From NCBI GenBank assembly GCA_964384425.1, contig CAYLKE010000002.1, positions 10,365-74,364 of the forward strand: a DNA stretch of 64,000 nt, given 5' to 3'. The stretch comes from an uncultured Methanosarcinales archaeon (GTDB taxonomy: Archaea > Nanobdellota > Nanobdellia > Woesearchaeales > JAGLXL01). Numbering within the stretch: the stretch's first letter is position 1; each line of letters begins with the position of its first letter. The position numbers and the translations under genes were made by a program. Positions 2,831 to 20,296 of this stretch are shown one piece after another. Under the pieces are notes generated by a model, which was not told the origin of the DNA, ran no database searches, and saw only the letters and a list, made by a program, of their open reading frames with translations.

Positions 2831-3583
2831 ATGATTCCATATAAAGATATCAAAGCAGTAGCATTTAGAGATTTTGAAATAAAAAATAATAGGTTATATA
2901 AGAAAATATATAGAATTCTTGCAAGTTATTTGGTTTTTATTTTTCAATTCTTTCCAATTACACCAAATATGGTTTCATTGAGTGCTATTATTGTAACTTT
3001 TTTAGGAGGATTTTTCTTTTTAAAATATAATATTTACTTATTTTTTGCAGGTGTTTTAATGCTTTATTTAGGTGAATTATTAGATCATGCAGATGGTAAT
3101 TTAGCAAGAGTTACAAAAAAAACATCAAAAATAATTTCAGTATTATTGGATGATTATTTCCATGAAATACCTAGACAATTCATATTCTTTTTTATAGGTT
3201 TAGGAGGATATTTAATTTTTAATAAAATCATTTATCTTTATTTGGGATTTATAGTATTAGTTTTTCAATTATTAACTATGCATTTATCACAATTAAGAAG
3301 AGCTGTATTGGCAATGCAAGTAAACACTGGATTTTTTAATGAAGCAAACGATAATAATCCTTTTTCTCAATCTAAAATTAAAAAATTAGGCATGAAAATT
3401 GCTGTTTTTCCAATGAAAGAAAATAAATTAATATTACTTATTTCAGTTATTATTACATTTTTTGTTCCTAATTTCATATTTAATATTTTGTACTTTTACG
3501 CACCCTTTATATTTTTAAGGTTCTTTGCTTTTTTCTATGTTTCATATAAAGGAGTTCAATCTTTTGAGAAAAAAATTCAATAA
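2831..3583 (+). CDS. CDP-alcohol phosphatidyltransferase family membrane protein
   Basis: The protein is polytopic and hydrophobic, with DHADGNLAR matching the DGxxAR core of the family motif. The distal G..D...D part is divergent (S...D...H). It is the first gene of a tightly packed plus-strand operon. Confidence 0.55.
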   Translation: MIPYKDIKAVAFRDFEIKNNRLYKKIYRILASYLVFIFQFFPITPNMVSLSAIIVTFLGGFFFLKYNIYLFFAGVLMLYLGELLDHADGNLARVTKKTSKIISVLLDDYFHEIPRQFIFFFIGLGGYLIFNKIIYLYLGFIVLVFQLLTMHLSQLRRAVLAMQVNTGFFNEANDNNPFSQSKIKKLGMKIAVFPMKENKLILLISVIITFFVPNFIFNILYFYAPFIFLRFFAFFYVSYKGVQSFEKKIQ

Positions 3584-3584
3584 A

Positions 3585-4577
3585 ATGAAAATAATTGCTA
3601 TACCTTTTGGTACTCATAAAGCACATCCTGTAAATCAAGAATGGTTTAAGTCAGTAGGAGTTACTAAATCAAAATCCTTTACTGGTTTTAATTCAAGAAA
3701 AATTGTAACAAAATACCCTTTTATTTCTCAGATTTTAGGATTCATTCATTCAATATTAATGCCCAAGGCAGATGTTTATTTATTAACTAGTGTAGCTTCA
3801 GTAATATCTGTTGTTTTAAATAAAAAATTATTTGGTAGTAAAATAATCACAGTTAATTCAGATACTTTTTACAAGGACCTAAAAAATGCAAGAGGAATTA
3901 GAAAATTATATATGAAATGGTTAGTGAAACACGTTGATGCGATTATTTCAACATCTAATATGATGAAAAACATATCATCAAAGTTTACAAATGTTCCCAA
4001 TGAAGTAGTTTATCCTTTTTGTAATGTAGAAAAATTTGAAAAAAATAAATATAATGCAAATAGTATTAATATTTGTTCTATTGGATTGGGAATAAGTACA
4101 AAAGGAACAGATATATTATACAAAGTATTTGATAATGTCAAGAGAAAAATTTCTAATTCTAAACTTTATGCTCTCGGAGATCTTATTTTTATTAAAAATA
4201 TTAAAAAACCAAAAGATTGTATAAATCCAGGAGTTGTTGATCCATTAAAATATATATGTGATTCGGGTGTGTATGTAAATACATCTCGTCATGAATCTTT
4301 TGGTGTAAATATAATTGAAGCTATGTGTGCAGGATTACCAGTTATTGCTACTAAAAATTGTGGTGCTTCTGAATTAATTTCACCTCATTATCCTGAATTA
4401 ATTACTTCATTAGATCCTATTGAAATATCTGAAAAAATAATTTCTCTTTTAAACAAAAAAGAAAAAAAGAAAAAAATAGGAAAACATCTTAAGAAAATAG
4501 GAAAAGAATTTACTAAAGAAAAAAGTATATCTGATTTTAAAAATACTTTTTATACATTACTGAAGAAAATAAAATGA
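3585..4577 (+). CDS. Glycosyltransferase family 4
   Basis: It has the EX7E motif (ESFGVNIIE) followed by AMCAGLPVIAT. The ATG at 3585 directly follows the upstream stop (3581-3583). The listed TTG start at 3525 would overlap the previous gene by 59 nt. Confidence 0.8.
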   Translation: MKIIAIPFGTHKAHPVNQEWFKSVGVTKSKSFTGFNSRKIVTKYPFISQILGFIHSILMPKADVYLLTSVASVISVVLNKKLFGSKIITVNSDTFYKDLKNARGIRKLYMKWLVKHVDAIISTSNMMKNISSKFTNVPNEVVYPFCNVEKFEKNKYNANSINICSIGLGISTKGTDILYKVFDNVKRKISNSKLYALGDLIFIKNIKKPKDCINPGVVDPLKYICDSGVYVNTSRHESFGVNIIEAMCAGLPVIATKNCGASELISPHYPELITSLDPIEISEKIISLLNKKEKKKKIGKHLKKIGKEFTKEKSISDFKNTFYTLLKKIK

Positions 4578-6322
4578 AAAAAAGCAAACTTATTATTGTA
4601 GCCCCTCATCCAGATGATGAATGGATAGGATGTGGTTGTAGTATACAAAAAGCTGTAGATGAAGGAAGAAAAGTTAAAGTAATTCTTGTAACTGGAAGAG
4701 TAAAATCAAGGGTTGAATTGTCAAAAGAACTTGCTAAGAAATATGGATATGAATTATTATTTTTAGATGAAACAGAAAGAAATCTAAATGAAGAAAACAT
4801 AATCAATATTATCAAAAAAGAGATTTCTATTAACGATACAGTACTTATTCCTTCTTATGATTCTCATCCAGATCATCAATTAATTAATATTATTGCTAAA
4901 GAAAACATAAAGAATAAAGAACTGTTTGAATATGGTATTTATAATAATTCTAAAAATATTTTTAAAAGAGCATTTAATAAAATAAAAAGTTTAATAACTA
5001 AAAAGGGATATACTAGTTTTTTCAAAGGAAGAGGAGTTAGTTTTTCTTATAAGGAAAAAGTAAAACAAAAACACATAAAAGAATTTGATGAATTTCCCAG
5101 AGCAGCTGATCTTTTAAGACCTGCAAAAACTAAATTAAATATTGTTTTTTTAACTAAAGATTATCATGTAAATACTGTTGATGCAGGATTTACAAGCATT
5201 TTAAATCTAGCTAAAAAACTAAAAGAAAAAGGACATTTTGTTACAATGATAAGTAATAAGAGTCATAAAGTTAATTATGGTTCTCCTGCAAATAAAATTT
5301 ATGAGGTTTTTAAAGGAATTCCAATATATCGACCTTATGGCTTTAAATATTTGAATTTTAAAATTGGTCCTTTGAGTTTAAATTTTATAATTAATAGATT
5401 TATTGCTCCAGTATTGGGTTTAAGATATGTGCAAAAAAAACTTAAATTTAAATTTAATATCATACATGGATCCAGCTCTGCATCTTATTTGATAATACCT
5501 TCATTACTAGCTAAATTATTTTCTCAGAGAGCAAAAATATTTCATTCTATACGTTCTGAATCCCATTTTAGTTTGTGGGGATTGAAAACCTCATTTTTAC
5601 TAAATTTTACACAAAAAACATTTGTTACCTTACAGAGTTTAATTAAAAAGATAATCAAAGATGGATGTAATCCTAAAAATCTTGAATTAATAAGATCATC
5701 AATTGATTTAAGCAAATTTAAAAGAATAAAAGAAAAACCTGAATCTCTTAGAAAAAAACATAATGTTGCTAAGGAAGACAAAGTTGTTTTATATTATGGA
5801 AAAGGAGGACATCTAAAAGGTGTTGATGTTTTATTAAAAGCAATTAATTTTATTCCTGAAAATGAAAAAGTTAAGTTTATTTTTTATCATCCAGTTATTT
5901 GGCTACCACATATTGTAAAATTATATGAAAAGCACAAGTACAAATATAAGATCTCTTTTAATATTGGTAAAATTAATGTTCCAGATTACTTAAACATGGC
6001 AGATATACAAGTTCTTCCATTTAAATCAATCCAAGGAACAGAAGGAAACCCTCTCTGTCTATTAGAGGGAATGAGTACAAAAACTCCAATCGTGACAACT
6101 GAATTAAATGATTTAAAAGAAATTGTTGAAAAGGATAAAGATGTTTTAATGGCCCAACCTGATAATCCAGAATCTTTAGCAAATGAAATAATGAGATTAT
6201 TGAATGACAAAGAATTGCAAAAAATATTAATCTGTAATTCATATGAAAAATCAAAATCCTTTGATATAAATATCATCACAAAACAAATACATAGAAATTA
6301 TTTAATATCTTTAAACAAATAA
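4574..6322 (+). CDS. Fusion protein: N-terminal PIG-L/LmbE-family de-N-acetylase plus C-terminal GT4 glycosyltransferase
   Basis: The N-terminal part has AHPDDE-type (APHPDDEWIGCG) and HPDH motifs of the PIG-L/LmbE zinc deacetylases. The C-terminal part has EX7E (EGNPLCLLE) and a GT-B layout. Its start overlaps the upstream stop by 4 nt. Confidence 0.75.
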   Translation: MKKSKLIIVAPHPDDEWIGCGCSIQKAVDEGRKVKVILVTGRVKSRVELSKELAKKYGYELLFLDETERNLNEENIINIIKKEISINDTVLIPSYDSHPDHQLINIIAKENIKNKELFEYGIYNNSKNIFKRAFNKIKSLITKKGYTSFFKGRGVSFSYKEKVKQKHIKEFDEFPRAADLLRPAKTKLNIVFLTKDYHVNTVDAGFTSILNLAKKLKEKGHFVTMISNKSHKVNYGSPANKIYEVFKGIPIYRPYGFKYLNFKIGPLSLNFIINRFIAPVLGLRYVQKKLKFKFNIIHGSSSASYLIIPSLLAKLFSQRAKIFHSIRSESHFSLWGLKTSFLLNFTQKTFVTLQSLIKKIIKDGCNPKNLELIRSSIDLSKFKRIKEKPESLRKKHNVAKEDKVVLYYGKGGHLKGVDVLLKAINFIPENEKVKFIFYHPVIWLPHIVKLYEKHKYKYKISFNIGKINVPDYLNMADIQVLPFKSIQGTEGNPLCLLEGMSTKTPIVTTELNDLKEIVEKDKDVLMAQPDNPESLANEIMRLLNDKELQKILICNSYEKSKSFDINIITKQIHRNYLISLNK

Positions 6323-7854
6323 TGTTTTTTAACTTTTCTTAATCTAAACATATCTTGTATTTGTAAAAAACTTAATACTGTAAATACAATTGCTTTTTCT
6401 ATAAAATTCTTACCAACATATGCTCTCCAATTAGATAACGAATGTTTTATTATACTATGTTTTTTTAGTTTAAGTTTTTTCAATTTCACGTCTGTTATTA
6501 GATTATTTATGTTATGTTTTTTACAAAAACTCATTATTTTATTAAATCCATAATTTAATGGATTACTTACAAAAATAAATATCAAATCGTACTTTTTATA
6601 ATCTTTTTTAATTTGTCTGTAATCTTTAATAACAATTTCATTATTTTCTTTAAGTTTATTAATTAAAAATTTAAGCATATGTGAATCAGAATAATTATAT
6701 ATCATAATTTTCTTATTTTTTAATGTATCAATTTCTTTTTTGATTTCACTTGTTTGATAATTTTCTTCGAGAACCTTTAATGTTGTTTCTTTTGCTTCTT
6801 TTTCCGTTTTTTTATAAAATTGCCAAAATTCAAAAAGAATATTTTTTTGTTTTTGATTTAATTTTCTAATTTTTATTAGTCTTTTCTTCCAATCTTTATG
6901 ATTAATTCTTTTATAGAATGTTATTTTATCATGGTCAATCAATAATTCATAATTATTATTCCTAATAACTGTTTTTTTATATGGTTGACTGATGTATCTA
7001 TTATCTATTCTGACTAATCTGTTATTTATGATTTCTTTATTTTCATCATTTTCAATTAAATTTTTCAATGATATTGCTATTTTATTTTTAATAGGACTTT
7101 CTAATTTAATATAATCAAAGATAGTTTCAAATACATCAAATAATCCCACTTGAGTATTAATAATCTTATTTTTTACTTTTGATAATTCTGAAGGTAATTT
7201 AATAAATAAATTAGAACCATAACAATCCTCACTTACATATATAGAATGATTTCTAGGATTCATTAACCATCCTAATCCATGTATTTTTCCATAATCAGTA
7301 TATCCATGATCTGAAGAATTAATTATTATTGAATCTTCATACAAATTATTTTCTTTTAAATAAGTATATAATTTTTTAGTATATTCTTCTTGATCAGAAT
7401 GTGGTGCTAAATGCACATAAACAAAATTGTTTCCTTTGTAATCAAATTTATTTTTCATCACAAAAAGAAAATAATTCCAAATATCTATATTTTTAGATTT
7501 GAATTCTTTTTTATCTTCTTCAATACTTAAAATGTCTTTATAAAAATTCATACCTTCTTTACAAAAAAATATTCCATTTAAAGTATAATTATTTTCTTTA
7601 AGTAGAGTTAAGTAATTTTGATGATTTCCAAATTGTTTAAGTGCTGCATGGGCATAATACAATTCATATGAAAATCTTCCTGAGAAAAATGAACTTGTTG
7701 ACATAATAGTTGAGGTTGCTGATGCAATTGCATTTGTAAATAATATCCCTTCTGGAGCCATTTTCTTATACGTGGAAAGTTGTCCATAATTATCATTACC
7801 TGGAAATGCTCTATTTCCTTCATTTGCAATCCAAAATATGTTTTGTTTTTTCAT
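6298..7854 (-). CDS. Alkaline-phosphatase/sulfatase-superfamily protein (candidate phospho- or phosphonyl-group transferase) with an extra C-terminal domain
   Basis: It has an SSDHGY metal-ligand segment, and a Ser/Thr-rich segment (ASATSTIMSTSSFFSGRF) sits where sulfatases carry CxPxR. It is the last gene of the phosphonate operon. Confidence 0.55.
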   Translation of the reverse strand: MKKQNIFWIANEGNRAFPGNDNYGQLSTYKKMAPEGILFTNAIASATSTIMSTSSFFSGRFSYELYYAHAALKQFGNHQNYLTLLKENNYTLNGIFFCKEGMNFYKDILSIEEDKKEFKSKNIDIWNYFLFVMKNKFDYKGNNFVYVHLAPHSDQEEYTKKLYTYLKENNLYEDSIIINSSDHGYTDYGKIHGLGWLMNPRNHSIYVSEDCYGSNLFIKLPSELSKVKNKIINTQVGLFDVFETIFDYIKLESPIKNKIAISLKNLIENDENKEIINNRLVRIDNRYISQPYKKTVIRNNNYELLIDHDKITFYKRINHKDWKKRLIKIRKLNQKQKNILFEFWQFYKKTEKEAKETTLKVLEENYQTSEIKKEIDTLKNKKIMIYNYSDSHMLKFLINKLKENNEIVIKDYRQIKKDYKKYDLIFIFVSNPLNYGFNKIMSFCKKHNINNLITDVKLKKLKLKKHSIIKHSLSNWRAYVGKNFIEKAIVFTVLSFLQIQDMFRLRKVKKHYLFKDIK

Positions 7855-7865
7855 TTTAACCCTAT

Positions 7866-8495
7866 TTATTTCTTTTCAAAAACCATAACTAAATTTTGTC
7901 CAAATAACAAATTTTTAATTGGTAAGTTTATATGAATTAATGGTGTAACGCTTCTATTGAATGTTATTTTCTTAATTTTAAACAATTTTCTGACAAGCAT
8001 TTTAATTTGCCAAGTAAAAGTAGGAGTAATATGTGGTTCAAACCAATCTCTATCTTTTCCATACAATTTACCTTGAAAACTAGGAAATTTTCCAGTAAAT
8101 AAAAAGAATAACCTACTAAACCAATTTTGACTATTTGGTGTTGTAACAATTAATTTACCTTTTTCATTAAGCATATTATATGCATCAACAAATAATTTCT
8201 TGGAATTGTATATGTGTTCAATAACTTCTGTACAAATAACCATATCATATTTTTGTTTTATTTTAATTTCTTTATTCAAGTCAACCTTTAAACATTTAAT
8301 ATCAGAAGCACGATTAATAGAAGGATTAATATCTGTTGCAGTAATATCAAATCCTAGTTTATTTAATTTTAAAGGTACTCCACCATACCCACTACCCAAA
8401 TCAATAATTTTTTTTGGTTTATAATATTTAACTAATTTAACAACTGTTTCATGAAGATACTTTGATGCTCTTCTGTATTTTCTAGATTCTTTCAT
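7866..8495 (-). CDS. Class I SAM-dependent methyltransferase
   Basis: Motif I is IIDLGSGYGG, followed by an acidic post-I segment and the DMVICTEVIEHI motif. Its start overlaps the upstream gene's stop by 4 nt. Confidence 0.8.
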   Translation of the reverse strand: MKESRKYRRASKYLHETVVKLVKYYKPKKIIDLGSGYGGVPLKLNKLGFDITATDINPSINRASDIKCLKVDLNKEIKIKQKYDMVICTEVIEHIYNSKKLFVDAYNMLNEKGKLIVTTPNSQNWFSRLFFLFTGKFPSFQGKLYGKDRDWFEPHITPTFTWQIKMLVRKLFKIKKITFNRSVTPLIHINLPIKNLLFGQNLVMVFEKK

Positions 8496-9625
8496 TTTTC
8501 CACTTTATTTTTTAAAATATATATCAATCCTTTGTTATCAACACTTCTAGGATTGTTCTTTGCCCTTTCTAGATTAAAATTTAATGATAGTTCATTTAAG
8601 TCTTTTTCATCTATACCTAATTTTTCCAATTTAGTTTCAAGACGTATATTTTCCATAATCTGATTAACTTTTAAATTTATCTCTTTTACATTATTAACAT
8701 TAAATATATCACATATTTCTTGTATAGTTTGCTTTACATATTCTACTCCTCTTTTATCTAAACAATCATCTTTTTGGACATTGTTATTATAGATTGCAAA
8801 TTGTCCTAATATAAGTCCAACAGCATGTCCATGAGGAATTCCATGATTAGAAGTAAATGTATATGAAACTGCATGAGGTGCAGTAGTTTTTGTAATGTTG
8901 ATTGCTTTTCCTGCTAAATTAGCAGCATTTAACATATTTTGCTTTGCTATAATGGAATCGCCATTTACTGCTTTATCAATACTTCCTAAGGTTAATATCA
9001 TTGCTTTTTTTGCATAATTTTTAGATTCTTCTGTTGAATTTATAGACCAATATGATTCAACAGCTTGACATAATGCATCCATCCCACTAGATGCTGCAAC
9101 AGATTTAGGAAGATTTTTTGTTAAATTTGAATCTAAAATACAATAATCTGGTAATAAATAATTATGTGCAAGAGAATATTTTTTTTTATCTTTGTAAACA
9201 ACAGCAAAATGAGTTGCCTCACTTCCTGACCCAAATGTTGTTGGAATTGCAATCAAAGGTTTTCCTTTTTCTAAGATTGGCATTTCTTTTTTCAAATAAC
9301 TTTCTATTGAAGCAGAATTATGAGAAAATGTATTTATTGATTTTGCCATGTCTATAACACTTCCTCCACCAATTGCTACAATTATATCATATATTTTTTC
9401 ATTAAAATGTTTTAATCCTTTTTTAATATCTTCAACTTTTACATTTGGAGAAAAATCATTAAAGAAAAAAGAATTATAATCTTGAAAATTATTTTCAATG
9501 TAATTTTTTGCTCCACACAGTTCAAATGATTTTTTACCTGTAACAAAAAAAATATTTTTGGCATAAAGATTCCCAATTATACAATTTAAATAATTAATAC
9601 CAAAATACTCTCTTTGATTAGTCAT
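8492..9625 (-). CDS. Iron-containing (group III) alcohol dehydrogenase, candidate phosphonoacetaldehyde reductase
   Basis: It has the GGGSVIDMAK NAD(P)-binding motif and a His-rich metal site (PHAVSY, HGIPHGHAV). The specific role is inferred from its position directly downstream of ppd and pepM. Confidence 0.65.
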   Translation of the reverse strand: MTNQREYFGINYLNCIIGNLYAKNIFFVTGKKSFELCGAKNYIENNFQDYNSFFFNDFSPNVKVEDIKKGLKHFNEKIYDIIVAIGGGSVIDMAKSINTFSHNSASIESYLKKEMPILEKGKPLIAIPTTFGSGSEATHFAVVYKDKKKYSLAHNYLLPDYCILDSNLTKNLPKSVAASSGMDALCQAVESYWSINSTEESKNYAKKAMILTLGSIDKAVNGDSIIAKQNMLNAANLAGKAINITKTTAPHAVSYTFTSNHGIPHGHAVGLILGQFAIYNNNVQKDDCLDKRGVEYVKQTIQEICDIFNVNNVKEINLKVNQIMENIRLETKLEKLGIDEKDLNELSLNFNLERAKNNPRSVDNKGLIYILKNKVEK

Positions 9626-10754
9626 CTTTACTTAAAAATTCCATAAATGCTTTTTTATTTTCAATAGGGGTAGTGGTTGGTCTTCCTAAATCTTTTCTTG
9701 CTCCTTTATTTACTTTAATTTCAAGTAATGCAGGACCTTCACATTCTTTAAGGATTTTTATTTTCTCTTTCAACTGAGATTCTGTTTCACAACTCATTAT
9801 TTCTTTGTAATTACATCCTTGTGCAATTTTTTCAAAATCCATTGTTTCTGCAACTGTTGGTTGCCCTCCAACTGAATCATGAGCACAATTATTGAAAATA
9901 ATGTGTTTAAAGTTTTTAGGTTCTAATGCTCCAGTAATTCCCATTGATCCCATATGCATTAATGCTGCTCCATCCCCATCAAAACAATATACTTGTTTAT
10001 TTGGTTTTTGCAATGCAATTCCTAATGCAATGGATGAACTATGTCCCATTGACCCAACTGTTAAAAAATCATTTGCATGTCCTTGACTTTTTTCTTCTCT
10101 GTATTCAAATAATTCTCGAGAAGTTTTCCCAGTAGTTGAAACAATAACTGCATCTAATCCTATTTCATTTGCAACAATTTTTACTGCATCTTCTCTACTC
10201 ATATCATATTGACAAATTGAATTAGCTTTTTCTGCTGAATATGATTCAAATAATCCTTTTCTTACAATTAAAGCATAAGGCTCATTTGTTTCTTTGATTT
10301 TACTTACTGCTGTATCAATTGTTTCTTTTGCTTTATCAATTTCATCAGATAATATTTCATATTTCATTCCAATTGCATCTAATAATCCAGTAGTAACCAT
10401 TCCTTGTTTTTTATGTTGAGGTTCATCTTTTTTACCTGGTTCTCCCCTCCATCCAATTAAAAGTAACATTGGGATATTATATACTTCTTTATCTGTTAAA
10501 GAAATTAATGGATTCATACAATTTCCTTGTCCAGAATTTTGCATATAAACTATTCCTATTTTATTAGTTGCAAGATGATAACCTGCTGCTAATGCAATTG
10601 CATTTCCTTCATTTGCTGCAATTATGTTATTTTTCTCTTCAACATTATCTAATAAATAAGCACAAAAATCTTTTAGTAATGAGTCTGGAACACCCGTGTA
10701 AAAGTTTACTTCTTTTTCTTTTAGTTTTTTATAAAAATCTTTACAATTTATCAT
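9618..10754 (-). CDS. ppd: Phosphonopyruvate decarboxylase (ThDP-dependent)
   Basis: It has the ThDP motif GDGAALMHMGS...NN and the size (378 aa) and layout of the Ppd/sulfopyruvate decarboxylase family. It is assigned to Ppd because it lies adjacent to PEP mutase. Confidence 0.8.
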   Translation of the reverse strand: MINCKDFYKKLKEKEVNFYTGVPDSLLKDFCAYLLDNVEEKNNIIAANEGNAIALAAGYHLATNKIGIVYMQNSGQGNCMNPLISLTDKEVYNIPMLLLIGWRGEPGKKDEPQHKKQGMVTTGLLDAIGMKYEILSDEIDKAKETIDTAVSKIKETNEPYALIVRKGLFESYSAEKANSICQYDMSREDAVKIVANEIGLDAVIVSTTGKTSRELFEYREEKSQGHANDFLTVGSMGHSSSIALGIALQKPNKQVYCFDGDGAALMHMGSMGITGALEPKNFKHIIFNNCAHDSVGGQPTVAETMDFEKIAQGCNYKEIMSCETESQLKEKIKILKECEGPALLEIKVNKGARKDLGRPTTTPIENKKAFMEFLSKDD

Positions 10755-10769
10755 TTTTCTTTCCTCTAT

Positions 10770-12068
10770 TTATTTCTCTGGTATTAACCTTAATATCTCC
10801 TTAATAGATAAGCAGTGTTCTCCTGCTTCATGACATCTTTCATTTGTTAAAATAGATTCAGCAGTTCTTACCATAGATGGATAAGCACTTCTAAGAAGAT
10901 GGTTAGCGTAAATAACAACACTTATTCCTGCTTTATTTAATTCCTTTTCTGAAATATGTCCATATGCAGTTGGAACTGCAATCAATGGAATTTTATTTTC
11001 AAATTGATTATATCTTTTACAAAATTCCATTAGTTCTGCTGTATCTGAATCTTTACTATGAATCATTATTGCATCAGCTCCCGCATTGATGTATGAATTT
11101 GCTCTAATCAAAGCATCTTCAACACCTTTTTTTAAAATAAGACTTTCAATTCTAGCGATAACCATAAAATCATCAGTAATTTGTGCTTTTTTACCAAGGG
11201 TTATCTTTTGTGAAAAAGCTTGAACAGTATCTTGTGTTTGTTGAACATCTGTTCCAAAAAGGGAATTTTTCTTTGCCCCAATTTTATCCTCTATAATGAC
11301 AGCAGAAACCCCCAATCTTTCTAATGTTTTAACCATAAAAGTAAAATGTTCTGGCAATCCTCCATTATCCCCATCAACAATTAATGGTTTAGTTGTTACT
11401 TCGAAAACTTCATTAATGGTATTAGTTCTAGATGAAAAATCAACACAACCAGTATCAGGTTTTCCTTTTGCAGTTGAATCTGTCAAACTACTTAGCCACA
11501 TTGCGTCAAATTCTTTAATTTTAACACCATCATTTATTTTTGTAGTTTCAACAATTCTTCCTGTTAGCCCATTATGGACTTCTAAAACTCTAACAATATC
11601 TTTTAATTCAAGCAATCTTCTAAGTTTCTTTCTTCTTACTTCTGGAGTTGTTCCTTTGTCAACAACATGTTTAATTATTTTTGTAGATGAAATATCTGGT
11701 GTGTATTCTGGTTCAACTAATTCTCCATCCCATTCTTTTAATGTTTCGATAACTCTTTCTCTTGTCTTTTTCTGAACACCTTCTCTCCAATCTGTTCCAT
11801 GAACAACATAATCTGGTTTTAATAATTTTAAGTTAGGAACATAATCTAATGTGTCTTGAGGAATTACACTTGTAACTCCTTTGATATTTTCAATAACTGC
11901 TTTTCTTTTTTCATAATCTAAAAAAGGAATTCTTTTGTAACTTGCAATTGCTTTATCTGTAAGAAGACCTATAGTTACATTACCTAACTTTCTAGCTTCT
12001 TTAATGATATTCAAATGGCCATGATGTATTATATCTCCACACATCCCAATATATACTTTTTTTGTCAT
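10770..12068 (-). CDS. pepM: Fusion protein: HxGH-type cytidylyltransferase (TagD/ECT-like) plus phosphoenolpyruvate mutase
   Basis: The N-terminal part has GDIIHHGH and ISSTKII, which are cytidylyltransferase signatures. The C-terminal part has [21 protein letters not shown] and the PepM-discriminating EDKX5NS motif ([10 protein letters not shown], nt 11262-11291). Confidence 0.9.
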
Positions 12069-12649
12069 TTTTTTTCACCACCTTTATGTATTTTAAATAT
12101 TTTTTTGATTATGTTTTCTGTTGATAATTTTTCATAGAATTCTGGTTGTACAATCTTTGCATTAATTTCTTTTATATATTTTTTTCCAGGAATATTTTGC
12201 CAATTAGAACCATAAATAACTATAACTTCAGCATTAGGAAATTGATTTTTAATTTTTCTTAAATTTTCAGTAGGATCAAATTCATTTTGATTCATAACCA
12301 TATCAACACACTGTAATGCAGATACAATGTTTTTTCTTTCTTTAAAATCAGCAATAGGTTCTTCTTTATATGTCTTTATTGCTTCATTTGTTAAAACCCC
12401 ACATATATGAAAATCTCCTAATTCATTTGCTTTTTGCAATAATCTTAAATGTCCATAATGAAATAAATCTGCAGTAACAGATGAGTAAACTATTGTTTTA
12501 GTTTTAATTTTTTCAATATCAACTACTTCCCCTTCTTTTATACCAGAATTCTTTGGAATTGTAACACACAATTGCCCATTTGATTTATTTATCCATATTT
12601 GTTTTTTCATATATAACATCCCATTTACTATTAACACTAGTATTAACAT
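12065..12649 (-). CDS. Cytidylyltransferase-family protein with N-terminal AbrB/SpoVT-like segment
   Basis: It has ADLFHYGH (HxGH) and LSTENII motifs. The N-terminal [18 protein letters not shown] resembles a swapped-hairpin AbrB domain. An alternative ATG at 12610 (MKKQIW) may be the true start. Confidence 0.7.
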
Positions 12650-12695
12650 TTTATTTATAAATATTATGTAAATATATAATATATCACAAAATAAA

Positions 12696-13994
12696 TTAAA
12701 GTAATTTATTTACGTAATTAAGAACATCATCCAAAGTATTATCTTCACCTTCAGACTTAATCTTAACAGGCTTAACAATCTTATTTATTTTATCAAATAT
12801 TTTCTCTTGCCTATATAAATCTTCAATAGGATGATCTTTTTTTCTAACAAATAGGATCTGAGGATCATTGTATAGGTAAAATGTTATTGTTGGTTTTGGA
12901 AAAAACCAAAATAAAAATCTCTTTAAAAACATAGGAACTTTATTTGTTAATAGTACGTCTGTTGTATATCTATCTGTTATAACAAAATCATGTGTTTTTC
13001 TTGCAGGAAATATTTTGAAAAAATATCTTAATAACAAATCAAATGCAAAAACAGGAGCAGCCAAAGTATGGATTATACTAAATTTTTTCCTTCCCTTGCC
13101 TTCTGCACCCAAACTTGTTTTTCCACCTATTTTTTTATACCTCTTACCAAAAAAATGAATAGGAAGAATATTATTTCTTCCCCTACCAGTATAAATTCTT
13201 TTTACTTTAAAATTATTTTTTTTAAGTACTTGTATGAAATTATTTGAAGTTGTTGTTTTACCACTTCCATCCATTCCTATGAATGCAATCAAAGGCTTAC
13301 TTTTTCTAAACCAATTTAATTTCCATAATCCTCCAAAAAAATATAATCTGAATATCCAATACAATTTAAAGGGATAATTTTTAATAAAATAATTGTAAAT
13401 ATTTCTAGCCTCTTTCTCAATTAATTCATATCTATGTTTTTTAATATTGTTAATAACAAATATAGAATATTTTCTTCCAATTTTTTTATTTAATATCTTT
13501 TCAATATAATCCCAATTAATATTTTCTTTTTTTAATCTTTCAATATCATCTATGTAATCTTTTCTAAATCTTTTTTTATCTAAAATACTATGTAACAAAA
13601 TAATTAATAATTCATCATTAAAAGAACTAACATAAAAAAAACCTATTTTTCTTTTATGTTTTAATATATTTTTTGAATCTAAATATCTTAAATTACTACC
13701 TGTTATCCCATCAACATGTATATGAAAAAACAATCTTTTCTTTTCTTTAACAAAAAATTTATGGTACCCTAAATGATTAGAAAATGGATTTATGGGAATT
13801 CTCTTAAAATTAAAATTCTCAAATATTTTCTTAATTTTAGCTACATCTTTTCTCTCCACACAGAGATCAATGTCTTTTCCATCATATATCTTGTTTTCTA
13901 ATAAAAAGCCATAATTTCTAGAAATAACATATCTCACATTGTTTTTCTCAAAATTATCCAAAACTTTTTTAATCTCTTTTATGAATTCAATCAT
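12696..13994 (-). CDS. Fusion protein: N-terminal Pol-beta-type nucleotidyltransferase-like domain plus C-terminal thymidylate-kinase-like P-loop kinase
   Basis: The N-terminal part has a GKDIDLCV NTase-like acidic motif. The C-terminal part has Walker A GMDGSGKTT and a DRY segment (ITDRYTTD) like dTMP kinases. Confidence 0.5.
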   Translation of the reverse strand: MIEFIKEIKKVLDNFEKNNVRYVISRNYGFLLENKIYDGKDIDLCVERKDVAKIKKIFENFNFKRIPINPFSNHLGYHKFFVKEKKRLFFHIHVDGITGSNLRYLDSKNILKHKRKIGFFYVSSFNDELLIILLHSILDKKRFRKDYIDDIERLKKENINWDYIEKILNKKIGRKYSIFVINNIKKHRYELIEKEARNIYNYFIKNYPFKLYWIFRLYFFGGLWKLNWFRKSKPLIAFIGMDGSGKTTTSNNFIQVLKKNNFKVKRIYTGRGRNNILPIHFFGKRYKKIGGKTSLGAEGKGRKKFSIIHTLAAPVFAFDLLLRYFFKIFPARKTHDFVITDRYTTDVLLTNKVPMFLKRFLFWFFPKPTITFYLYNDPQILFVRKKDHPIEDLYRQEKIFDKINKIVKPVKIKSEGEDNTLDDVLNYVNKLL

Positions 13995-14046
13995 AACTAT
14001 GTTAAAATAAGATTATTTAAAAGTTTAACTATTATAGGAAATAATA

Positions 14047-15516
14047 ATGGACAAATATAAGAAAATATCTTGGGAATTTTTTACATCTTATTTACTGCAA
14101 GGACTCAGTGTTTTATTAGGTTTTTTGGCATTTCCTATTATTACAAGATATTTGACTGTTAAAGAATATGGTTTTTATTCTGTTCTTATTGTAACATTTA
14201 CTTTAATAATTAGTAGTATTGATTTTGGACTTAAGAACTTTATTCAAAGAGATTTAACTTCCAAATCTGAAAAATATAAATTAAATAAAATGTCTATATT
14301 CAATACTTTTTTTTTAATCACTTCAGGTATTTACATCTTATTATTTGTAATATTTCAAATAATTAATTATATCTTTTTGTCTATTGATATGTATTTAGTT
14401 ACATATTTTTTCTTTTCAATGATTTTTGCAAATTATTTTGGAATATTTAGTTTTTATCTAACATCTAGAATAGAATTAATAAAAAGTAAGATTCTAAATT
14501 TTTTAAATGCTGATTTATGGTTAATCATACTTATAGTATTTATTATATTTTCATCTAAATTAACAATAAAAAGTATTTTCATAATTAAACTGCTTGCATC
14601 AGTCCTAAGTTTGATTTTCATCATATTAATTATAAAAAATAAGAATAAAATATTCACATTTAAATTCAATAAAAAATATTTGGTTAAAGCATTAGAATAC
14701 TCATTTCCTTTTGTTCCTATGTTAATATCACAATGGGTTATAACCGCTAGTGACAGATATTTAATAAAAATTTTTTCTAATAATACTCAACTAGGATATT
14801 ACTCATACATATATACTCTTGTTGCTTTTATTTCAATTACTGGAAAACAGATATCTTCAATATTATTAACTTACATAATAGAAGCTAAAAATAAAAAAGA
14901 TCATGCTAAAAGTAACTTTTTATTTAATGCGAACTTAAAGTATTCTTTGATGATAGTTATTCCTGGTATTTTGGGATTATTAATTTTAAGAAAAGAAATT
15001 GTTATATTATTATCAGGAACAAAATATTTACCAGCATTATACGTTTTACCAATACTTTTATTTTATCCCTTATTCAGAATAATCAACATAAATTTTCAAA
15101 GTATATTGATGATTCAAAACAAAACAAAATTGATTAGTAAAATCTATATTGTTGGCATGGTACTAAATATCATATTAAATTTTGTTCTTGTTCCTTTTTA
15201 TGGAATTCTGGGGGCTTCTATTGCCACAATTACAACATATTTTTTGATGACGATAATGTTTTATTCTATATCAAAAAAATACTTTAAACCATTTTATCGC
15301 TTTAATTTTAAATTTTTACGTATTGAAAGAATAATATTTTCATCATTACTAATGGCAGCAGTGTTATTTTTTATAGAACCAACAACCCCTATAGCTAAAA
15401 TATCAACAATATTTTTTGGAGCAGGAATTTATTTTTTTTTGTTATTAATAACAGGATTCTTTATCAAAGACGAATTGTCACTAATTAAAAATCTCATTAA
15501 ATCACCTTTTTATTAA
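14047..15516 (+). CDS. Polysaccharide/oligosaccharide flippase (MOP superfamily, Wzx-like)
   Basis: The 489-aa protein has roughly 12-14 hydrophobic helices, and its length and topology are typical of Wzx/MurJ-like flippases. It lies inside the glycan island. Confidence 0.65.
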   Translation: MDKYKKISWEFFTSYLLQGLSVLLGFLAFPIITRYLTVKEYGFYSVLIVTFTLIISSIDFGLKNFIQRDLTSKSEKYKLNKMSIFNTFFLITSGIYILLFVIFQIINYIFLSIDMYLVTYFFFSMIFANYFGIFSFYLTSRIELIKSKILNFLNADLWLIILIVFIIFSSKLTIKSIFIIKLLASVLSLIFIILIIKNKNKIFTFKFNKKYLVKALEYSFPFVPMLISQWVITASDRYLIKIFSNNTQLGYYSYIYTLVAFISITGKQISSILLTYIIEAKNKKDHAKSNFLFNANLKYSLMIVIPGILGLLILRKEIVILLSGTKYLPALYVLPILLFYPLFRIININFQSILMIQNKTKLISKIYIVGMVLNIILNFVLVPFYGILGASIATITTYFLMTIMFYSISKKYFKPFYRFNFKFLRIERIIFSSLLMAAVLFFIEPTTPIAKISTIFFGAGIYFFLLLITGFFIKDELSLIKNLIKSPFY

Positions 15517-15567
15517 ATGACATAAGAAAAGATAGAAGAATATTCAATAAATATAATAAAATAAGAA

Positions 15568-16455
15568 TTAATAAAAAAAATTCTGGAAGTAAACAACCCC
15601 CACCATATAAACTCCCCATAACATAACATTCAACACCATCATCTTATCTTTTAAGAATATCATTGTAGGGGATTCTGCTTTGTCAGACATAAGAGTTAAA
15701 TATACATACCTCATAAGTCCATAAAAGACAAATAAGAAAGATGCAGCAAGAAGATGAGCATTAACACTTAATCTGTTCTCTAAACACCATAGTAAATAAA
15801 TTGTTAATGTAAGTCCTGCAGAAAACACCAACATCATCTTAAGAAAATCTAGATTATATTTCTTCAAGACTTCTCTTTTATGTTCATCATTTCTTACAAG
15901 TTCAGAATATCTTTTAGCTATTGTAATCATAATAGCTAATGTGAATGTGACTGCTAATATCCAAGGACTAATTCCAACATTTATTGCAAATATCCCTGCT
16001 AACACCCTTAACACATAACCTGTTGAAACAACAACCAAATCCAATATAACTTCATTTTTTAACCATAAACTATAAAATATATTTATAAAAATATACAATA
16101 AGATAATACTCCATACTAATTTATTAATAAAATAAGAAAAAACTATTGAAAAAACAAATAAAAACAAAATTAAAATATAACCTTGCCACATCTTAACCTT
16201 TCCAGAAGCCAATGGCCGCGTTCTTTTTTTAGGATGTTTTTTATCATATTCTACATCGATAAAATCATTAAAAACATAAACACCAGAACTAGTCAAACAA
16301 AAAACAGCAAATACAATCAAAGATAAGATAATTTTATCTTGAACAAATAAATTACCAGAAAAAACCAATCCGCCAAATACAAAGAAATTTTTAATCCATT
16401 GATGTGGACGCATTAGTTTTACAAAATCTTTAATTACCATTAACCTATTAATCAT
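15568..16455 (-). CDS. UbiA-family polyprenyl-phosphate phosphoribosyltransferase (Rv3806c/DPPR-synthase-like)
   Basis: It has the motif series RPHQWIKN, NDFIDVEYDKKHPKKRTRPLASG, YVLRVLAG and AKRYSEL in the same order as I recall for mycobacterial decaprenyl-phosphate phosphoribosyltransferase. Confidence 0.7.
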   Translation of the reverse strand: MINRLMVIKDFVKLMRPHQWIKNFFVFGGLVFSGNLFVQDKIILSLIVFAVFCLTSSGVYVFNDFIDVEYDKKHPKKRTRPLASGKVKMWQGYILILFLFVFSIVFSYFINKLVWSIILLYIFINIFYSLWLKNEVILDLVVVSTGYVLRVLAGIFAINVGISPWILAVTFTLAIMITIAKRYSELVRNDEHKREVLKKYNLDFLKMMLVFSAGLTLTIYLLWCLENRLSVNAHLLAASFLFVFYGLMRYVYLTLMSDKAESPTMIFLKDKMMVLNVMLWGVYMVGVVYFQNFFY

Positions 16456-16517
16456 AATAATTTTTATAAATATTATTAAAAATAAACATAACTACTAGAA
16501 AATGGGTGATGGATGAA

Positions 16518-16523
16518 GGAGGT
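16518..16523 (+). promoter_or_regulatory. Shine-Dalgarno site (GGAGGT) for the SDR gene at 16529
   Basis: GGAGGT lies 5 nt upstream of the ATG and is complementary to the archaeal 16S 3' end (..AUCACCUCC). Confidence 0.5.
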
Positions 16524-16528
16524 CAGAT

Positions 16529-17572
16529 ATGAAAAAAACATTAGCAATCACAGGAGGAGCTGGTTTCTTAGGATACCATCTTTGTAATCATTTAAAAAAT
16601 AAATATAAAGAAATAAGAGTTATTGATAGACAAAAACTAAATCCAAATGAATATCCAAAAAATGTTAAATTTTACAACTTTGACATTAGAGATCACAAAG
16701 ATCTTGTAAAGGCATTCGAAGGAGTGGATGAAATAATTCATGCCGCAGCTGCTCTTCCGTTATGGAAGAAAAAAGAGATTTATTCTGTAAATGTTAAAGG
16801 AACAAAAAGTGTTCTTGACGCTGCTATGAAAAATAAAATCAAAAGAATGGTTCTTATATCTTCAACAGCAGTTTATGGTGTTCCAGATAAACATCCACTT
16901 TATGAAAATGATAAATTAATTGGAGTAGGTCCTTATGGAATTACAAAAATTAAAAAAGAAAAACTTGCAGACAGATACAGAAAAAAAGGAATGTTTATCA
17001 CAACAATTCGTCCAAAAACATTTATTGGAACAGGAAGACTAGGTGTTTTCCAAATTTTATATGATTGGGTAGAAAGTGGAACCAAAATACCTATAATTGG
17101 AAAAGGAAAAAATAGATATCAGTTATTGGAAGTAACTGATTTATGCGAAGCAATTTATTTATCATTAAAATCAAGAAACAAAAAAGCTAATGGGGTGTTT
17201 AACATTGGAGCAGATAACTTTGGAACTGTAAAACATGATGTAGGGGCATTATGTGAATATGCAAGCAATGGATCTCGAACATTATCATTTCCAGTTTGGA
17301 TGGTTTTGCCAGTGTTAGAAGTTGCATGGTGGTTCAGAATGTCTCCTTTATACAAATGGGTTTATGGAACAGCATATAAAGATTCATTTGTATCAGTAGA
17401 TAAAGCAAAGGAAATTCTTAAATGGAAACCTAAATATAGTAATGCAGAAGCTTTAATCAGATCATATGAATGGTATTTAGAACATAAAGACGAACTTAAG
17501 GGAGAAGAAGGAGTTACTCACAGAGTTGCTTGGAAACAAGGAATATTAGGAATAGCTAAGAAATTTTTGTAA
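16529..17572 (+). CDS. NAD-dependent epimerase/dehydratase (extended SDR, 3-beta-HSD-like)
   Basis: It has the TGGAGFLG Rossmann motif and a YGITK catalytic YxxxK. Confidence 0.8.
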   Translation: MKKTLAITGGAGFLGYHLCNHLKNKYKEIRVIDRQKLNPNEYPKNVKFYNFDIRDHKDLVKAFEGVDEIIHAAAALPLWKKKEIYSVNVKGTKSVLDAAMKNKIKRMVLISSTAVYGVPDKHPLYENDKLIGVGPYGITKIKKEKLADRYRKKGMFITTIRPKTFIGTGRLGVFQILYDWVESGTKIPIIGKGKNRYQLLEVTDLCEAIYLSLKSRNKKANGVFNIGADNFGTVKHDVGALCEYASNGSRTLSFPVWMVLPVLEVAWWFRMSPLYKWVYGTAYKDSFVSVDKAKEILKWKPKYSNAEALIRSYEWYLEHKDELKGEEGVTHRVAWKQGILGIAKKFL

Positions 17573-17573
17573 A

Positions 17574-18062
17574 ATGAATATTAAAAAAATAATAAAATTC
17601 AGTGAAAGAATATTTGATGTGTTTATGAAAGACTTTTCATCAATAGGAAGTATGGTTTTCTATGGGTTGGTTATGATTATGTTTTTTATATTAGAATTTT
17701 ACAAAATAAGTTTATTTCTTTTGTTGAGTTTTATTTTATTGTCATCGATTACAATTATTATTAGATCAATTTATTTTAAAACTCGTCCTAATGTAATGAA
17801 ACACAATTCATTCTTTGAAAGACTAGATGCTTCATCTTTTCCAAGTGTACATTCTGCAAGAATTATTGTATTGTTTTTAACATATTTATTTTTCTTTGAA
17901 ATTAATTTATCTATTACAATAGTTTTAGGAGCAATAACATTATGTGTTCTGTATAGCAGAATCTATCTCAAAAAACATTATTTGATTGATGTGGTGTTTG
18001 GGGTTTTGAATGGATTTGTTGTGGGAGTTATTGTTAATTATTTGGTAGGGAAATTATTATGA
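17574..18062 (+). CDS. PAP2-family (type 2 phosphatidic acid phosphatase) membrane phosphatase
   Basis: All three PAP2 motifs are present: KTRP, PSVHS and SRIYLKKHYLID. Confidence 0.85.
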   Translation: MNIKKIIKFSERIFDVFMKDFSSIGSMVFYGLVMIMFFILEFYKISLFLLLSFILLSSITIIIRSIYFKTRPNVMKHNSFFERLDASSFPSVHSARIIVLFLTYLFFFEINLSITIVLGAITLCVLYSRIYLKKHYLIDVVFGVLNGFVVGVIVNYLVGKLL

Positions 18063-19336: not shown

Positions 19337-19355
19337 AATAATTTCAATAATTAAA

Positions 19356-20294
19356 ATGAAAAATAGAAAAATAATTATCACTGGAGGAGCAGGAGAAGTT
19401 GGATTAAATCTCATAAACCTTATTAATAAGAAAAAATATCAGGTAATTGTTATTGATAAGAATAAACACAATATTAATATTGCAAAAAAGATATCTTCAA
19501 ATATTGATTGTTATTGTTATGATCTTTCAAAAAAGGGAGAATGGGAAGATTTGTTCAAGAATGCGTATTGTGTTGTTCAATTGCAAGCCCAAATATCTTC
19601 ATCTTACAAAAAACCTTACATAAAGAATAATATTCATTCAGTTAGAAATGTTGTGGAAGTATGTGAAAAAAATAAAATAAAGAATTTAATTCATTTGAGT
19701 TCTTCTGTTGTGATATCTGTTGCAAAAGATCATTACACCAATACAAAAAGAATAGGGGAAGAAATTGTTAAAAAAAGTAACGTCCCCCACATAATATTAA
19801 GGCCTTCGTTAATGTATGGTTGTTTTGATATAAAACATTTGGGATTTTTAAAAAAATTCTTTTTTTCACCAATATATCCTATTCCTGGAAGTGGCAAATA
19901 TATCAGACAACCTTTATTTGTAGAAGACATGTGTAATGTTATTATTAATTCTATCGAAAAGAAAAAAGACAATAGTATTCATAATATTATTGGAAAAGAA
20001 AGAATCTATTTCATAAATCTTCTTAGATTATTAGCAAAGAAATTAAATAAAAAAATAATTTTTTTCCCTTTACCTTTACCAGCATTTAATATAATGTTAA
20101 AATTTTATAGTTCATTATTTTCAAAAAACCCATTGATACCAGAACAATTAACAGCATTAATGGCAGGAGACAGATTTCCAGTAAGTGATTGGGACAAAGT
20201 TTTTAATGTTGAGTATACTCCTTATAAAAAAGGTTTAAAAAAGATGATTGAATCTCCTTATTTTGAATATGGTAAAATGATGAAAAAAGATTAA
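19356..20294 (+). CDS. NAD-dependent epimerase/reductase (SDR family)
   Basis: It has a TGGAGEVG Rossmann motif and a YTNTK YxxxK segment. Confidence 0.7.
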   Translation: MKNRKIIITGGAGEVGLNLINLINKKKYQVIVIDKNKHNINIAKKISSNIDCYCYDLSKKGEWEDLFKNAYCVVQLQAQISSSYKKPYIKNNIHSVRNVVEVCEKNKIKNLIHLSSSVVISVAKDHYTNTKRIGEEIVKKSNVPHIILRPSLMYGCFDIKHLGFLKKFFFSPIYPIPGSGKYIRQPLFVEDMCNVIINSIEKKKDNSIHNIIGKERIYFINLLRLLAKKLNKKIIFFPLPLPAFNIMLKFYSSLFSKNPLIPEQLTALMAGDRFPVSDWDKVFNVEYTPYKKGLKKMIESPYFEYGKMMKKD

Positions 20295-20296
20295 AA

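Follow-up and report, generated by a model that had tools for sequence, protein, structure and literature searches.

The stretch of DNA analysed here, hereafter the window (64 kb; contig CAYLKE010000002.1 of assembly GCA_964384425.1), carries an operon of six minus-strand genes that probably constitutes a biosynthetic module for a cell-surface phosphonate, leading from phosphoenolpyruvate (PEP) to cytidine monophosphate (CMP)-activated 2-hydroxyethylphosphonate (2-HEP, or HEP) and from CMP-2-HEP to a glycan. From 12649 down to 6298 the genes encode a stand-alone cytidylyltransferase (CT2), a cytidylyltransferase::PEP mutase fusion (CyTase::PepM), a phosphonopyruvate decarboxylase (Ppd), an alcohol dehydrogenase (ADH), a small S-adenosylmethionine (SAM) methyltransferase (MT) and a protein of the alkaline phosphatase (AP) superfamily. 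The first and second genes overlap by 4 nt, the third and fourth by 8 nt and the fourth and fifth by 4 nt; gaps of 15 nt and 11 nt separate the second gene from the third and the fifth from the sixth. A preliminary description of the window had listed the same six genes, and the open reading frame (ORF) list, Pfam and NCBIfam confirm their coordinates and order.

The PepM domain scores 387.8 bits on the NCBIfam equivalog TIGR02320 (cut-off 319.55), compared with 124, 95 and 40 bits on the sister models for phosphonopyruvate hydrolase, methylisocitrate lyase and CPEP mutase, and a PDB search matches it to Mytilus PepM (1m1b) with E=5e-39. All catalytic residues of the Mytilus enzyme are kept: W191, S193, D205, D232, D234, E260, K266, N268, S269, R306 and H337 correspond to W44, S46, D58, D85, D87, E114, K120, N122, S123, R159 and H190 of 1m1b. 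The EDKX5NS motif, from which a true PepM had been called at the outset, lies at fusion residues 260-269, and the call stands. Ppd reaches 504.6 bits on TIGR03297 (NCBIfam, cut-off 312.5) versus 119.8 and 87.4 bits on the beta (ComE-like) and alpha (ComD-like) models of sulfopyruvate decarboxylase, which bears out its distinction from the coenzyme M enzyme. As sequence matches, both assignments are far beyond chance. Owing to these scores and residues, the outcomes that the preliminary description had named as speaking against it, a PepM lacking its catalytic residues and a decarboxylase of the sulfopyruvate type, were not found.

The ADH is a predicted phosphonoacetaldehyde reductase of the PhpC type, an assignment made from residues and synteny and not from a curated equivalog. 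A 2026 study of PhpC (PMC13576164) gives D191, H195, H260 and H274 as metal ligands and K157/R349, plus T256, as the phosphonate clamp; Tyr264 is invariant among PhpC enzymes and is replaced by Phe in sulfoacetaldehyde reductases, 6jkp for instance (PMC13576164). The best PDB match of the window ADH is this same 6jkp, and we mapped the PhpC residues through the 6jkp alignment. K149, D183, Q187, T247, H251, Y255 and H265 correspond to K157, D191, H195, T256, H260, Y264 and H274 of PhpC; R354 is the putative equivalent of the clamp residue R349, a mapping that is insecure. The K, D, T, H, Y and H are invariant in all PepM-linked ADHs that we collected (22/22). It is the discriminating Tyr, the clamp Lys, the Thr and the metal ligands, together with synteny, that lead us to the PhpC-type reading, and the presence of the PhpC-specific Tyr (Y255) agrees with the earlier prediction that this enzyme reduces phosphonoacetaldehyde to 2-HEP.

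Activation of the product presumably falls to the N-terminal part of the fusion. The fused CYTIDYLYLTRANSFERASE domain (residues 5-134) shares 63% identity with 5x3d, the solved CyTase domain of Fom1 (E=1.6e-53), matches PF01467 in Pfam with 2e-15 and carries the motifs HHGH at position 15 and YTPDISST at ~126 (DISST at ~130). The Fom1 domain moves CMP from cytidine triphosphate (CTP) onto 2-HEP, and 23.6% of the Ppm enzymes in RefSeq are PF01467::Ppm fusions (Rice et al. 2019, PMC6697681). The likeness thus offers a direct precedent for CMP-2-HEP within a common architecture, and the domain is predicted to form CMP-2-HEP from 2-HEP and CTP. The same product had been named in the preliminary description, and it finds support in the known Fom1 fusion architecture and in the degree of identity. 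CT2 has as its best PDB match the Fom1 CyTase as well (5x3d, 3.2e-15), followed by ethanolamine-phosphate and glycerol-3-phosphate cytidylyltransferases; its HYGH motif lies at 64, and LSTE, which resembles ISTT, at 175. Its N-terminal extension of ~45 amino acids is kept in a homologue with 66% identity in the related locus L033 (related loci are cited by such numbers below). Since this homologue begins at the corresponding MKK, the true start of CT2 is probably 12610 (MKKQ...) and not 12649. Part of the extension (window 12512-12610, residues 14-47 of the first ORF) has the look of an AbrB/SpoVT-type swapped hairpin, and it gave zero Pfam matches that would support this resemblance.

Pfam searches of the operon and 30 further ORFs and a PDB search with 20 unassigned ORFs as one concatenated query found no cupin, MpnS, HEPD, HppE, FomD or PhnW/AEPT-type aminotransferase in the 64-kb window, and MpnS, HEPD, HppE, AEPT and FomD are likewise missing from the listed genes of related islands. 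Both searches agree with the earlier remark that no MpnS or HEPD is visible in the window, and they extend it to HppE and AEPT. Because no such branch enzyme was detected in the 64 kb, HEP is the predicted end phosphonate. Elsewhere in the window, 50 kb from the operon, a protein of the generic metallo-beta-lactamase fold (61666-62472) weakly resembles 6b9v and PhnP (3g1p, E=1.4e-5).

We propose a route of six steps, for the first four of which we draw on strong homology, diagnostic residues and conserved synteny, and for the last two on the gene neighbourhood only. The PEP mutase domain would turn PEP into phosphonopyruvate (step 1), which Ppd would decarboxylate to phosphonoacetaldehyde, thereby pulling the unfavourable mutase equilibrium (step 2). 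The PhpC-type ADH would reduce the aldehyde to 2-HEP (step 3), and the Fom1-type CyTase domain fused to PepM would join 2-HEP with CTP to CMP-2-HEP (step 4). CMP-2-HEP could then donate its phosphonyl group to a hydroxyl on a glycolipid or lipid-linked glycan that the neighbouring GT4 enzymes would build at the cytoplasmic face of the membrane (step 5); the most likely catalyst would be the soluble AP-superfamily protein, acting through a covalent phosphonyl-Thr49 intermediate, and the adjacent MT would cap the product. The Wzx-type flippase would finally export the decorated glycan (step 6).

Table 1. Genes and domains of the phosphonate operon and of the surrounding island (positions are those of the window).
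Feature	Position	Strand	Basis of assignment
Stand-alone PF01467 cytidylyltransferase (CT2)	12065-12649	minus	Pfam CTP_transf_like 9.4e-14
CyTase::PEP-mutase fusion	10770-12068	minus	Pfam CTP_transf_like + PEP_mutase
Fom1-type cytidylyltransferase domain, fusion residues 1-135	11664-12068	minus	PDB 5x3d match
PEP mutase domain, fusion residues 145-432	10770-11636	minus	TIGR02320, PDB 1m1b
Phosphonopyruvate decarboxylase Ppd	9618-10754	minus	TPP_enzyme_N/C, TIGR03297
Predicted PhpC-type group III (Fe/Zn) alcohol dehydrogenase	8492-9625	minus	Pfam Fe-ADH + ADH_Fe_C
Small class-I SAM methyltransferase	7866-8495	minus	Pfam Methyltransf_23 6e-14
Alkaline-phosphatase-superfamily protein	6298-7854	minus	Pfam Sulfatase 5.6e-9, weak, C-terminal part only
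Nucleotidyltransferase-like / thymidylate-kinase-like gene	12696-13994	minus	Pfam NTP_transf_5 + Thymidylate_kin, both weak
Wzx/MOP-type flippase	14047-15516	plus	Pfam Polysacc_synt + Polysacc_synt_3
CDP-alcohol-phosphotransferase-like protein with multiple transmembrane segments	2831-3583	plus	CDP-OH_P_transf 21.9 bits vs cut-off 22
GT4	3525-4577	plus	Pfam
PIG-L deacetylase::GT4 fusion	4574-6322	plus	Pfam
GT4 at island edge	149-919	plus	Pfam
Asparagine-synthase-type amidotransferase at island edge	920-2749	minus	Pfam

The protein proposed for the transfer step was described beforehand as a sulfatase-like member of the AP superfamily. Its AlphaFold2 model (pLDDT 84.7, pTM 0.86) retrieved S1 sulfatases and YejM/PbgA with Foldseek (E about 1e-14, TMt up to 0.69), and in the alignment of its family S181-D182-H183-G184 and H203 are invariant and the pair S48-T49 is conserved. 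At the level of the modelled fold the protein is a member of the AP superfamily, although sulfatase-type and transferase-type members are not separable by full-length Foldseek. The family profile also matches LtaS and phosphonate monoester hydrolases. The C/S-x-P-x-R formylglycine motif is missing from the family alignment; at the nucleophile position the window protein reads A-T-S-T49-I-M-S (family consensus (P/T)-S-T), and T49 aligns to the formylglycine Ser/Cys of three sulfatases, 9s03 and 6hr5 among them. In the model strand 2 is followed by a helix that has Thr49 at its N-terminus. The earlier label therefore holds for the AP fold, given the model, the Foldseek matches and the metal Asp/His set, but not for the sulfatase: with the motif missing and a Thr at the nucleophile position, the protein is neither a sulfatase nor a phosphonate monoester hydrolase of the formylglycine type.

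A Thr nucleophile without the formylglycine motif is the mark of phosphoryl-transferring AP members (NPP, LtaS, EptA) and not of sulfatases, and for this reason we propose a phosphonyl transferase. Transmembrane segments and a signal peptide were looked for in the AP protein and neither was found; being soluble, it could meet a cytoplasmic nucleotide donor. A function as phosphonyl transferase on CMP-HEP at the cytoplasmic face is nevertheless put forward tentatively, as possible rather than probable; alternatively the protein may hydrolyse phosphonate esters. Still more speculative is the wider suggestion that soluble Thr-type AP proteins form a previously unrecognised class of cytoplasmic phosphonyl transferases, which would use CMP-HEP to modify lipid-linked glycans and, together with the MT, would provide the missing tailoring step after cytidylylation. 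The C-terminus of the protein consists of a Rossmann-like domain and a terminal amphipathic helix. Taken alone (AlphaFold2 pLDDT 83.5), this domain gave no significant Foldseek match, the best being an eIF2B-alpha-like Rossmann fold (E 3e-3, TM<=0.38).

The MT shows weak PDB matches, about 1e-5, to TehB and to phosphoethanolamine-N-methyltransferase. A DhpI-like phosphonate O-methyltransferase was considered and rejected, DhpI being absent among the PDB matches at E<=0.01, and the protein can be classified as a generic class-I enzyme only. Its homologues in related islands, again beside the AP-family gene, are 66-76% identical; identity is lower for the AP protein (about 50%) and for the ADH (38-49%), so that the MT is the most conserved of the three. 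Judged by homology, its family is narrow and restricted to DPANN archaea. Candidate acceptors are a phosphonate ester, the HEP hydroxyl or a sugar. In 7/10 lineages with an AP-family gene (the window, L031, L032, L042, L039/40, L038 and L045) an MT gene lies immediately next to it; these MTs belong to at least four different families and their orientation varies. The recurring association suggests that MT and AP-family gene work as a pair.

Searched with the fusion protein, the GTDB representative genomes yielded 29 CyTase::PepM loci. The best matches come from a Woesearchaeota metagenome-assembled genome (MAG) and an unclassified archaeon (67% identity), followed by Bacteroidales, Clostridia, Caldithrix and Dehalococcoidia (62-65%) and by Methanobrevibacter (57-58%). 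Of the 29 loci, 26 also encode Ppd and 18 an Fe-ADH homologue, which indicates that the PepM-Ppd-ADH trio is a widespread mobile core in bacteria and archaea. A neighbour-joining tree of the fusion is unresolved near the window (bootstrap 1-28%), and we therefore make no claim of transfer. Homologues of MT, AP-family protein and CT2 were found in none of these 29 loci (0/29). The AP family as a whole is small, with 18 detectable relatives in 5.8 billion clusters, and a scan of metagenomes with an alignment of five AP sequences returned the already known L031 alone. Five relatives at about 50% identity are all encoded directly beside CyTase::PepM-Ppd-ADH, in islands that share the flippase, a 430-aa kinase-like gene, PIG-L::GT4, GT4 and asparagine synthase. 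A 37% member in a Woesearchaeota-named lineage adjoins the trio and a 30% member in L038 lies 4 kb from another one, so that the family is linked to the PepM trio in 7/10 lineages. What resembled a PepM pseudogene in L033 proved to be an assembly gap, the ORF containing X runs derived from N.

The operon is located within a glycan island. It is bracketed by the Wzx-type flippase, three GT4 genes, one of them fused to PIG-L, and the amidotransferase; flippase, GT4 and CDP-alcohol transferase flanks had been pointed out before and were all recovered, the last of them as a borderline match. The flippase gene is divergent from the operon and its product has about 12 or more hydrophobic segments and is conserved in related islands. 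On the other side a unit at 2831-6322 is convergent on the operon, the end of PIG-L::GT4 overlapping the operon end by 25 nt. GT4 and PIG-L::GT4 have homologues of 45-57% identity in all close islands, the asparagine synthase (AsnS) has homologues of 60% in L032 and L033, and altogether no fewer than five independent DPANN contigs keep the flippase/GT4/PIG-L::GT4/AsnS island, with identities of 45-60%. A seventh co-oriented gene, the kinase-like one, lies 46 nt upstream of the operon (85 nt if CT2 starts at 12610) and may be part of the same unit. It combines an N-terminal nucleotidyltransferase-like half with a C-terminal P-loop (thymidylate-kinase-like) half; its PDB matches are weak, and homologues with 51-57% identity stand beside the flippase in L032, L042 and L039/40. 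At the same position the P0003 locus has a 434-aa thymidylate-kinase-like gene.

Within the window no STT3 was found. In two related islands, L032 (364-3177) and L042 (10458-12094), an STT3/AglB gene (937 aa) and a DUF2304 gene stand beside the flippase, which points to an N-linked or lipid-linked surface glycan as the destination of the phosphonate; a glycolipid head group is possible. PIG-L::GT4, GT4 and the archaetidylinositol-phosphate-synthase-like membrane protein together recall, by analogy, the synthesis of a glucosamine (GlcN)-inositol glycoconjugate of the kind found in a glycosylphosphatidylinositol (GPI) core or a mycothiol-like compound. The phosphonate block itself is part of a hypervariable surface island, as L039/L040 and L041 (~12000-20594) share the same left flanks as far as the MT and DAO genes and then diverge through a strain-level replacement of the island: L039/L040 continue with the kinase-like gene, flippase, MT, AP-family gene and CyTase::PepM-Ppd-ADH, and L041 with unrelated unannotated genes. 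Beyond the flippase of the window, a block of five genes (15568-20294) encodes a UbiA-family protein, a short-chain dehydrogenase/reductase (SDR) epimerase, a PAP2 phosphatase, an FAD-dependent amine-oxidase-like protein and a second SDR. The UbiA-family protein scores 208 and 201 bits on decaprenyl-phosphate phosphoribosyltransferase models (cut-offs 234 and 207) and the amine-oxidase-like protein 254.6 on PRK07233 (cut-off 252). The block is similar to the mycobacterial pathway for the decaprenyl-phospho-arabinose donor and may hint at a lipid-linked pentose donor in a DPANN archaeon.

Several findings weigh against the proposed route to a HEP-decorated glycan. The best NCBIfam model of the ADH is Phn_Fe-ADH (TIGR03405), where its 168.3 bits stay under the cut-off of 423.7, and Q187 takes the place of the His ligand H195 of P. 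fungorum PhpC, as a Gln likewise does in sulfoacetaldehyde reductase; both His and Gln occur at this fourth metal-ligand position among the 22 PepM-linked ADHs. The prediction of the end product is based on 64 kb of a genome of ~1 Mb. With respect to the transfer step, use of a CMP-linked donor is not known to us for any enzyme of the AP superfamily. The AP family occurs in 3/10 lineages in glycan clusters with PepM not nearby and is thus glycan-associated rather than strictly phosphonate-specific, and the CDP-alcohol-phosphotransferase-like membrane protein offers an alternative transferase. Moreover, PF01467::Ppm fusions are also present in AEP-type clusters (AEP, 2-aminoethylphosphonate) that contain an AEPT (PMC8942020), for which reason HEP as the substrate of the fused domain is only predicted.

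If this membrane protein were the transferase, the CMP-2-HEP route would be the same but would end in the head group of a phosphonolipid or glycolipid, such as an archaeal glycolipid of the inositol/GlcN type made by the PIG-L::GT4 and GT4 genes, and the AP protein would be a hydrolase or editing enzyme for CMP-HEP or a phosphonate ester, or a secondary transferase of head groups from lipid to glycan. We consider this unlikely, though it is the main rival. The protein scores just below the CDP-OH_P_transf cut-off and has a weak match to archaetidylinositol-phosphate synthase (1.3e-9). Compared with the motif D-G-x2-A-R-x8-G-x3-D-x3-D, it has the DGxxAR part (DGNLAR), but the motif is incomplete, S and H replacing the distal G and the final D. 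A 26% homologue lies directly upstream of CyTase::PepM in L002 (~9021-9800; Woesearchaeota MAG RIFOXYB1_FULL_31_12) and a 54% one in L033, whereas L032 and L042, which keep the AP-family gene, lack it in their sequenced flanks. In L035 a 28%-identity AP member is found between CDP-OH_P_transf and a LicC-type nucleotidyltransferase, and Ppm clusters with CDP-OH transferases have been classed as phosphonolipid clusters (PMC8942020). The alternative roles of the AP protein would fit the profile matches to phosphonate monoester hydrolases and LtaS; against them, it has neither the N-terminal membrane domain of LtaS/EptA-type lipid-to-glycan transferases nor the formylglycine motif of the hydrolases.

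Other readings concern the phosphonate itself. 2-HEP is an intermediate of the methylphosphonate, fosfomycin and phosphinothricin pathways, and an unlinked MpnS, HEPD, Fom3-like radical SAM enzyme or transaminase using the aldehyde, encoded elsewhere in the roughly 1-Mb genome, might convert it to methylphosphonate, hydroxymethylphosphonate, 2-hydroxypropylphosphonate or AEP. We judge this improbable. No such enzyme was detected in the window or in five close island variants (flanks >60 kb in total), and the operon already has its own activating CyTase, whose substrate in surface pathways is the end phosphonate. The lone B12-binding radical SAM ORF of the window (26403-27776) would be a candidate, but it lies 14 kb from the operon and outside the island, between genes for a UvrD-type helicase (24221-26362, also with RQC and HRDC) and a HerA/DUF87 ATPase::TrmB-like helix-turn-helix protein (27777-29786). 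Its assignment as Fom3-like was rejected in view of 82 bits on the PhpK family (cut-off 600), 76 on HpnJ, no informative PDB match and these helicase neighbours, and the ORF is probably unrelated to the operon. That the cluster makes a diffusible, antibiotic-like phosphonate such as a fosfomycin relative is very improbable: Fom1, Fom2 and FomC each have a homologue here, but there is no equivalent of Fom3, Fom4 or FomD, no peptide ligase and no typical exporter, and the operon is surrounded by the conserved flippase/glycosyltransferase island. We give hardly any credence to a catabolic function, in which the PhpC-type dehydrogenase would oxidise HEP for phosphorus scavenging. PhpC homologues do act in HEP catabolism too, but catabolic clusters pair PhpC with phosphonoacetaldehyde hydrolases and not with PepM and Ppd (PMC13576164), and the Pfam and PDB searches found no PhnX, PhnA or C-P lyase genes in the window. 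A surface glycan carrying HEP continues to be the reading that we favour.

By the markers in the window, the host is a DPANN archaeon of the Woesearchaeota type that has no very close relative among sequenced genomes, in line with the DPANN-like origin supposed beforehand. Archaeal markers include the large and small subunits of replication factor C (RFC), an intein-bearing CDC48, NMD3, TrmB, an archaeal RNase J and RNA polymerase subunit F. Among the matches listed for the RFC small subunit, nearly all organism-named ones are 'Candidatus Woesearchaeota' or 'Nanoarchaeota archaeon' (63-69% identity) and one is just 'archaeon'. G+C is ~25% across the whole window; identical genes are present on one Logan contig and one NCBI contig, and scans of the window for tRNA genes and Rfam families gave no match. 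The CDC48/VAT AAA+ ATPase is split by an intein with a LAGLIDADG homing-endonuclease domain (57248-60907), and an ORF with intein and LAGLIDADG also occurs in the Woesearchaeota loci L039-L041. The leucyl-tRNA synthetase (LeuRS) at 32398-35097 scores 229 bits on PF13603, the Pfam model of the LeuRS editing domain.

Phosphonates make up a large pool of organic phosphorus in sea and soil. The present operon suggests that ultra-small, host-dependent archaea of the Woesearchaeota type, with genomes of ~1 Mb, devote at least six genes to surface decoration of this kind, within an island that is kept across several lineages. If abundant DPANN archaea of sediment and groundwater make HEP-glycans, they would be an unrecognised environmental source of HEP, for which dedicated bacterial catabolic routes exist (PMC13576164). 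About half of all Ppm clusters are believed to serve the decoration of cell-surface glycans or lipids, and the enzymes that move the CMP-activated phosphonate onto them are unknown (PMC6697681, PMC8942020). A candidate can now be named, a soluble AP-superfamily enzyme with a Thr nucleophile that is usually paired with an MT; if the proposal is true, MT and AP protein would form a general two-gene module by which glycans of archaea and bacteria receive (methyl-)phospho(no)ester groups.

Among known systems, the AP protein may be compared with LtaS, EptA/MCR-1 and the GPI ethanolamine-phosphate transferases, with which it shares the AP fold, the metal D/H set and the Thr nucleophile. These are extracytoplasmic enzymes with N-terminal multi-transmembrane domains that transfer a phospho-alcohol head group from lipid donors to a surface glycan. 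The window protein, in contrast, is soluble, without transmembrane segment or signal peptide, and has the additional C-terminal Rossmann-like domain for which no significant fold match was obtained, so that the two are alike in the type of active site only. The O-methyl phosphoramidate (MeOPN) capsule of Campylobacter likewise involves transfer of a cytidylyl-activated phosphorus group to a sugar, with class-I MTs in the cluster; this is an analogy only. The MeOPN pathway includes a kinase, and the window has the adjacent kinase-like gene. The chemistry is P-N there and C-P here, and the transferases are unrelated.

The closest counterpart of the core is Fom1-Fom2-FomC of the fosfomycin pathway of Streptomyces wedmorensis, which has the same CyTase(PF01467)::PepM architecture, at 63% identity, and the same order of Ppd, Fe-ADH and 2-HEP cytidylylation. 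Neither the B12-radical-SAM enzyme Fom3 nor the HppE/Fom4 epoxidase nor the CMP-phosphonate hydrolase FomD is found in the operon or island here, and the genes lie in an archaeal glycan island; CMP-HEP is therefore presumably a donor for transfer and not a transient intermediate. The methylphosphonate cluster of Nitrosopumilus maritimus is also archaeal and follows the PepM-Ppd-Pdh (Fe-ADH) route to 2-HEP, the product being esterified to a surface polymer, but methylphosphonate is not predicted here because MpnS was not detected in the window or the related islands. PntC-type AEP tailoring (Rice et al. 2019, PMC6697681) uses the same Ppm-fused cytidylyl activation before a transfer step, in some clusters with a second, unfused nucleotidyltransferase. 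In contrast to PntC (LicC-like, PF12804/PF00483), both cytidylyltransferases of the present operon belong to PF01467, and since the ADH stands in the place of the AEP transaminase, HEP rather than AEP is expected. HEP-type (PhpC) neighbourhoods account for 8.5% of ppm neighbourhoods, and Ppm was found in 12 of 1,077 archaeal genomes (Li & Horsman 2022, PMC8942020). They include the HEP-exopolysaccharide cluster of Stackebrandtia nassauensis (PMC8942020), with the same Ppm-Ppd-PhpC core and a surface polysaccharide as destination. The 12 archaeal cases of that inventory show no DPANN in the text, and a Thr-type AP enzyme, the narrow MT family and a second CyTase are undescribed there. The literature searched yielded no account of a cluster like this one from a DPANN archaeon, the nearest archaeal mention being a cytidylyltransferase::PepM fusion of Borgs with an AEP route. 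By gene content and sequence, the operon belongs with the HEP-type surface-phosphonate clusters and not with those of the fosfomycin, MpnS or PntC(LicC) type: its core chemistry is already known, and the host and the two accessory enzymes, the AP-family protein and the MT, are new.

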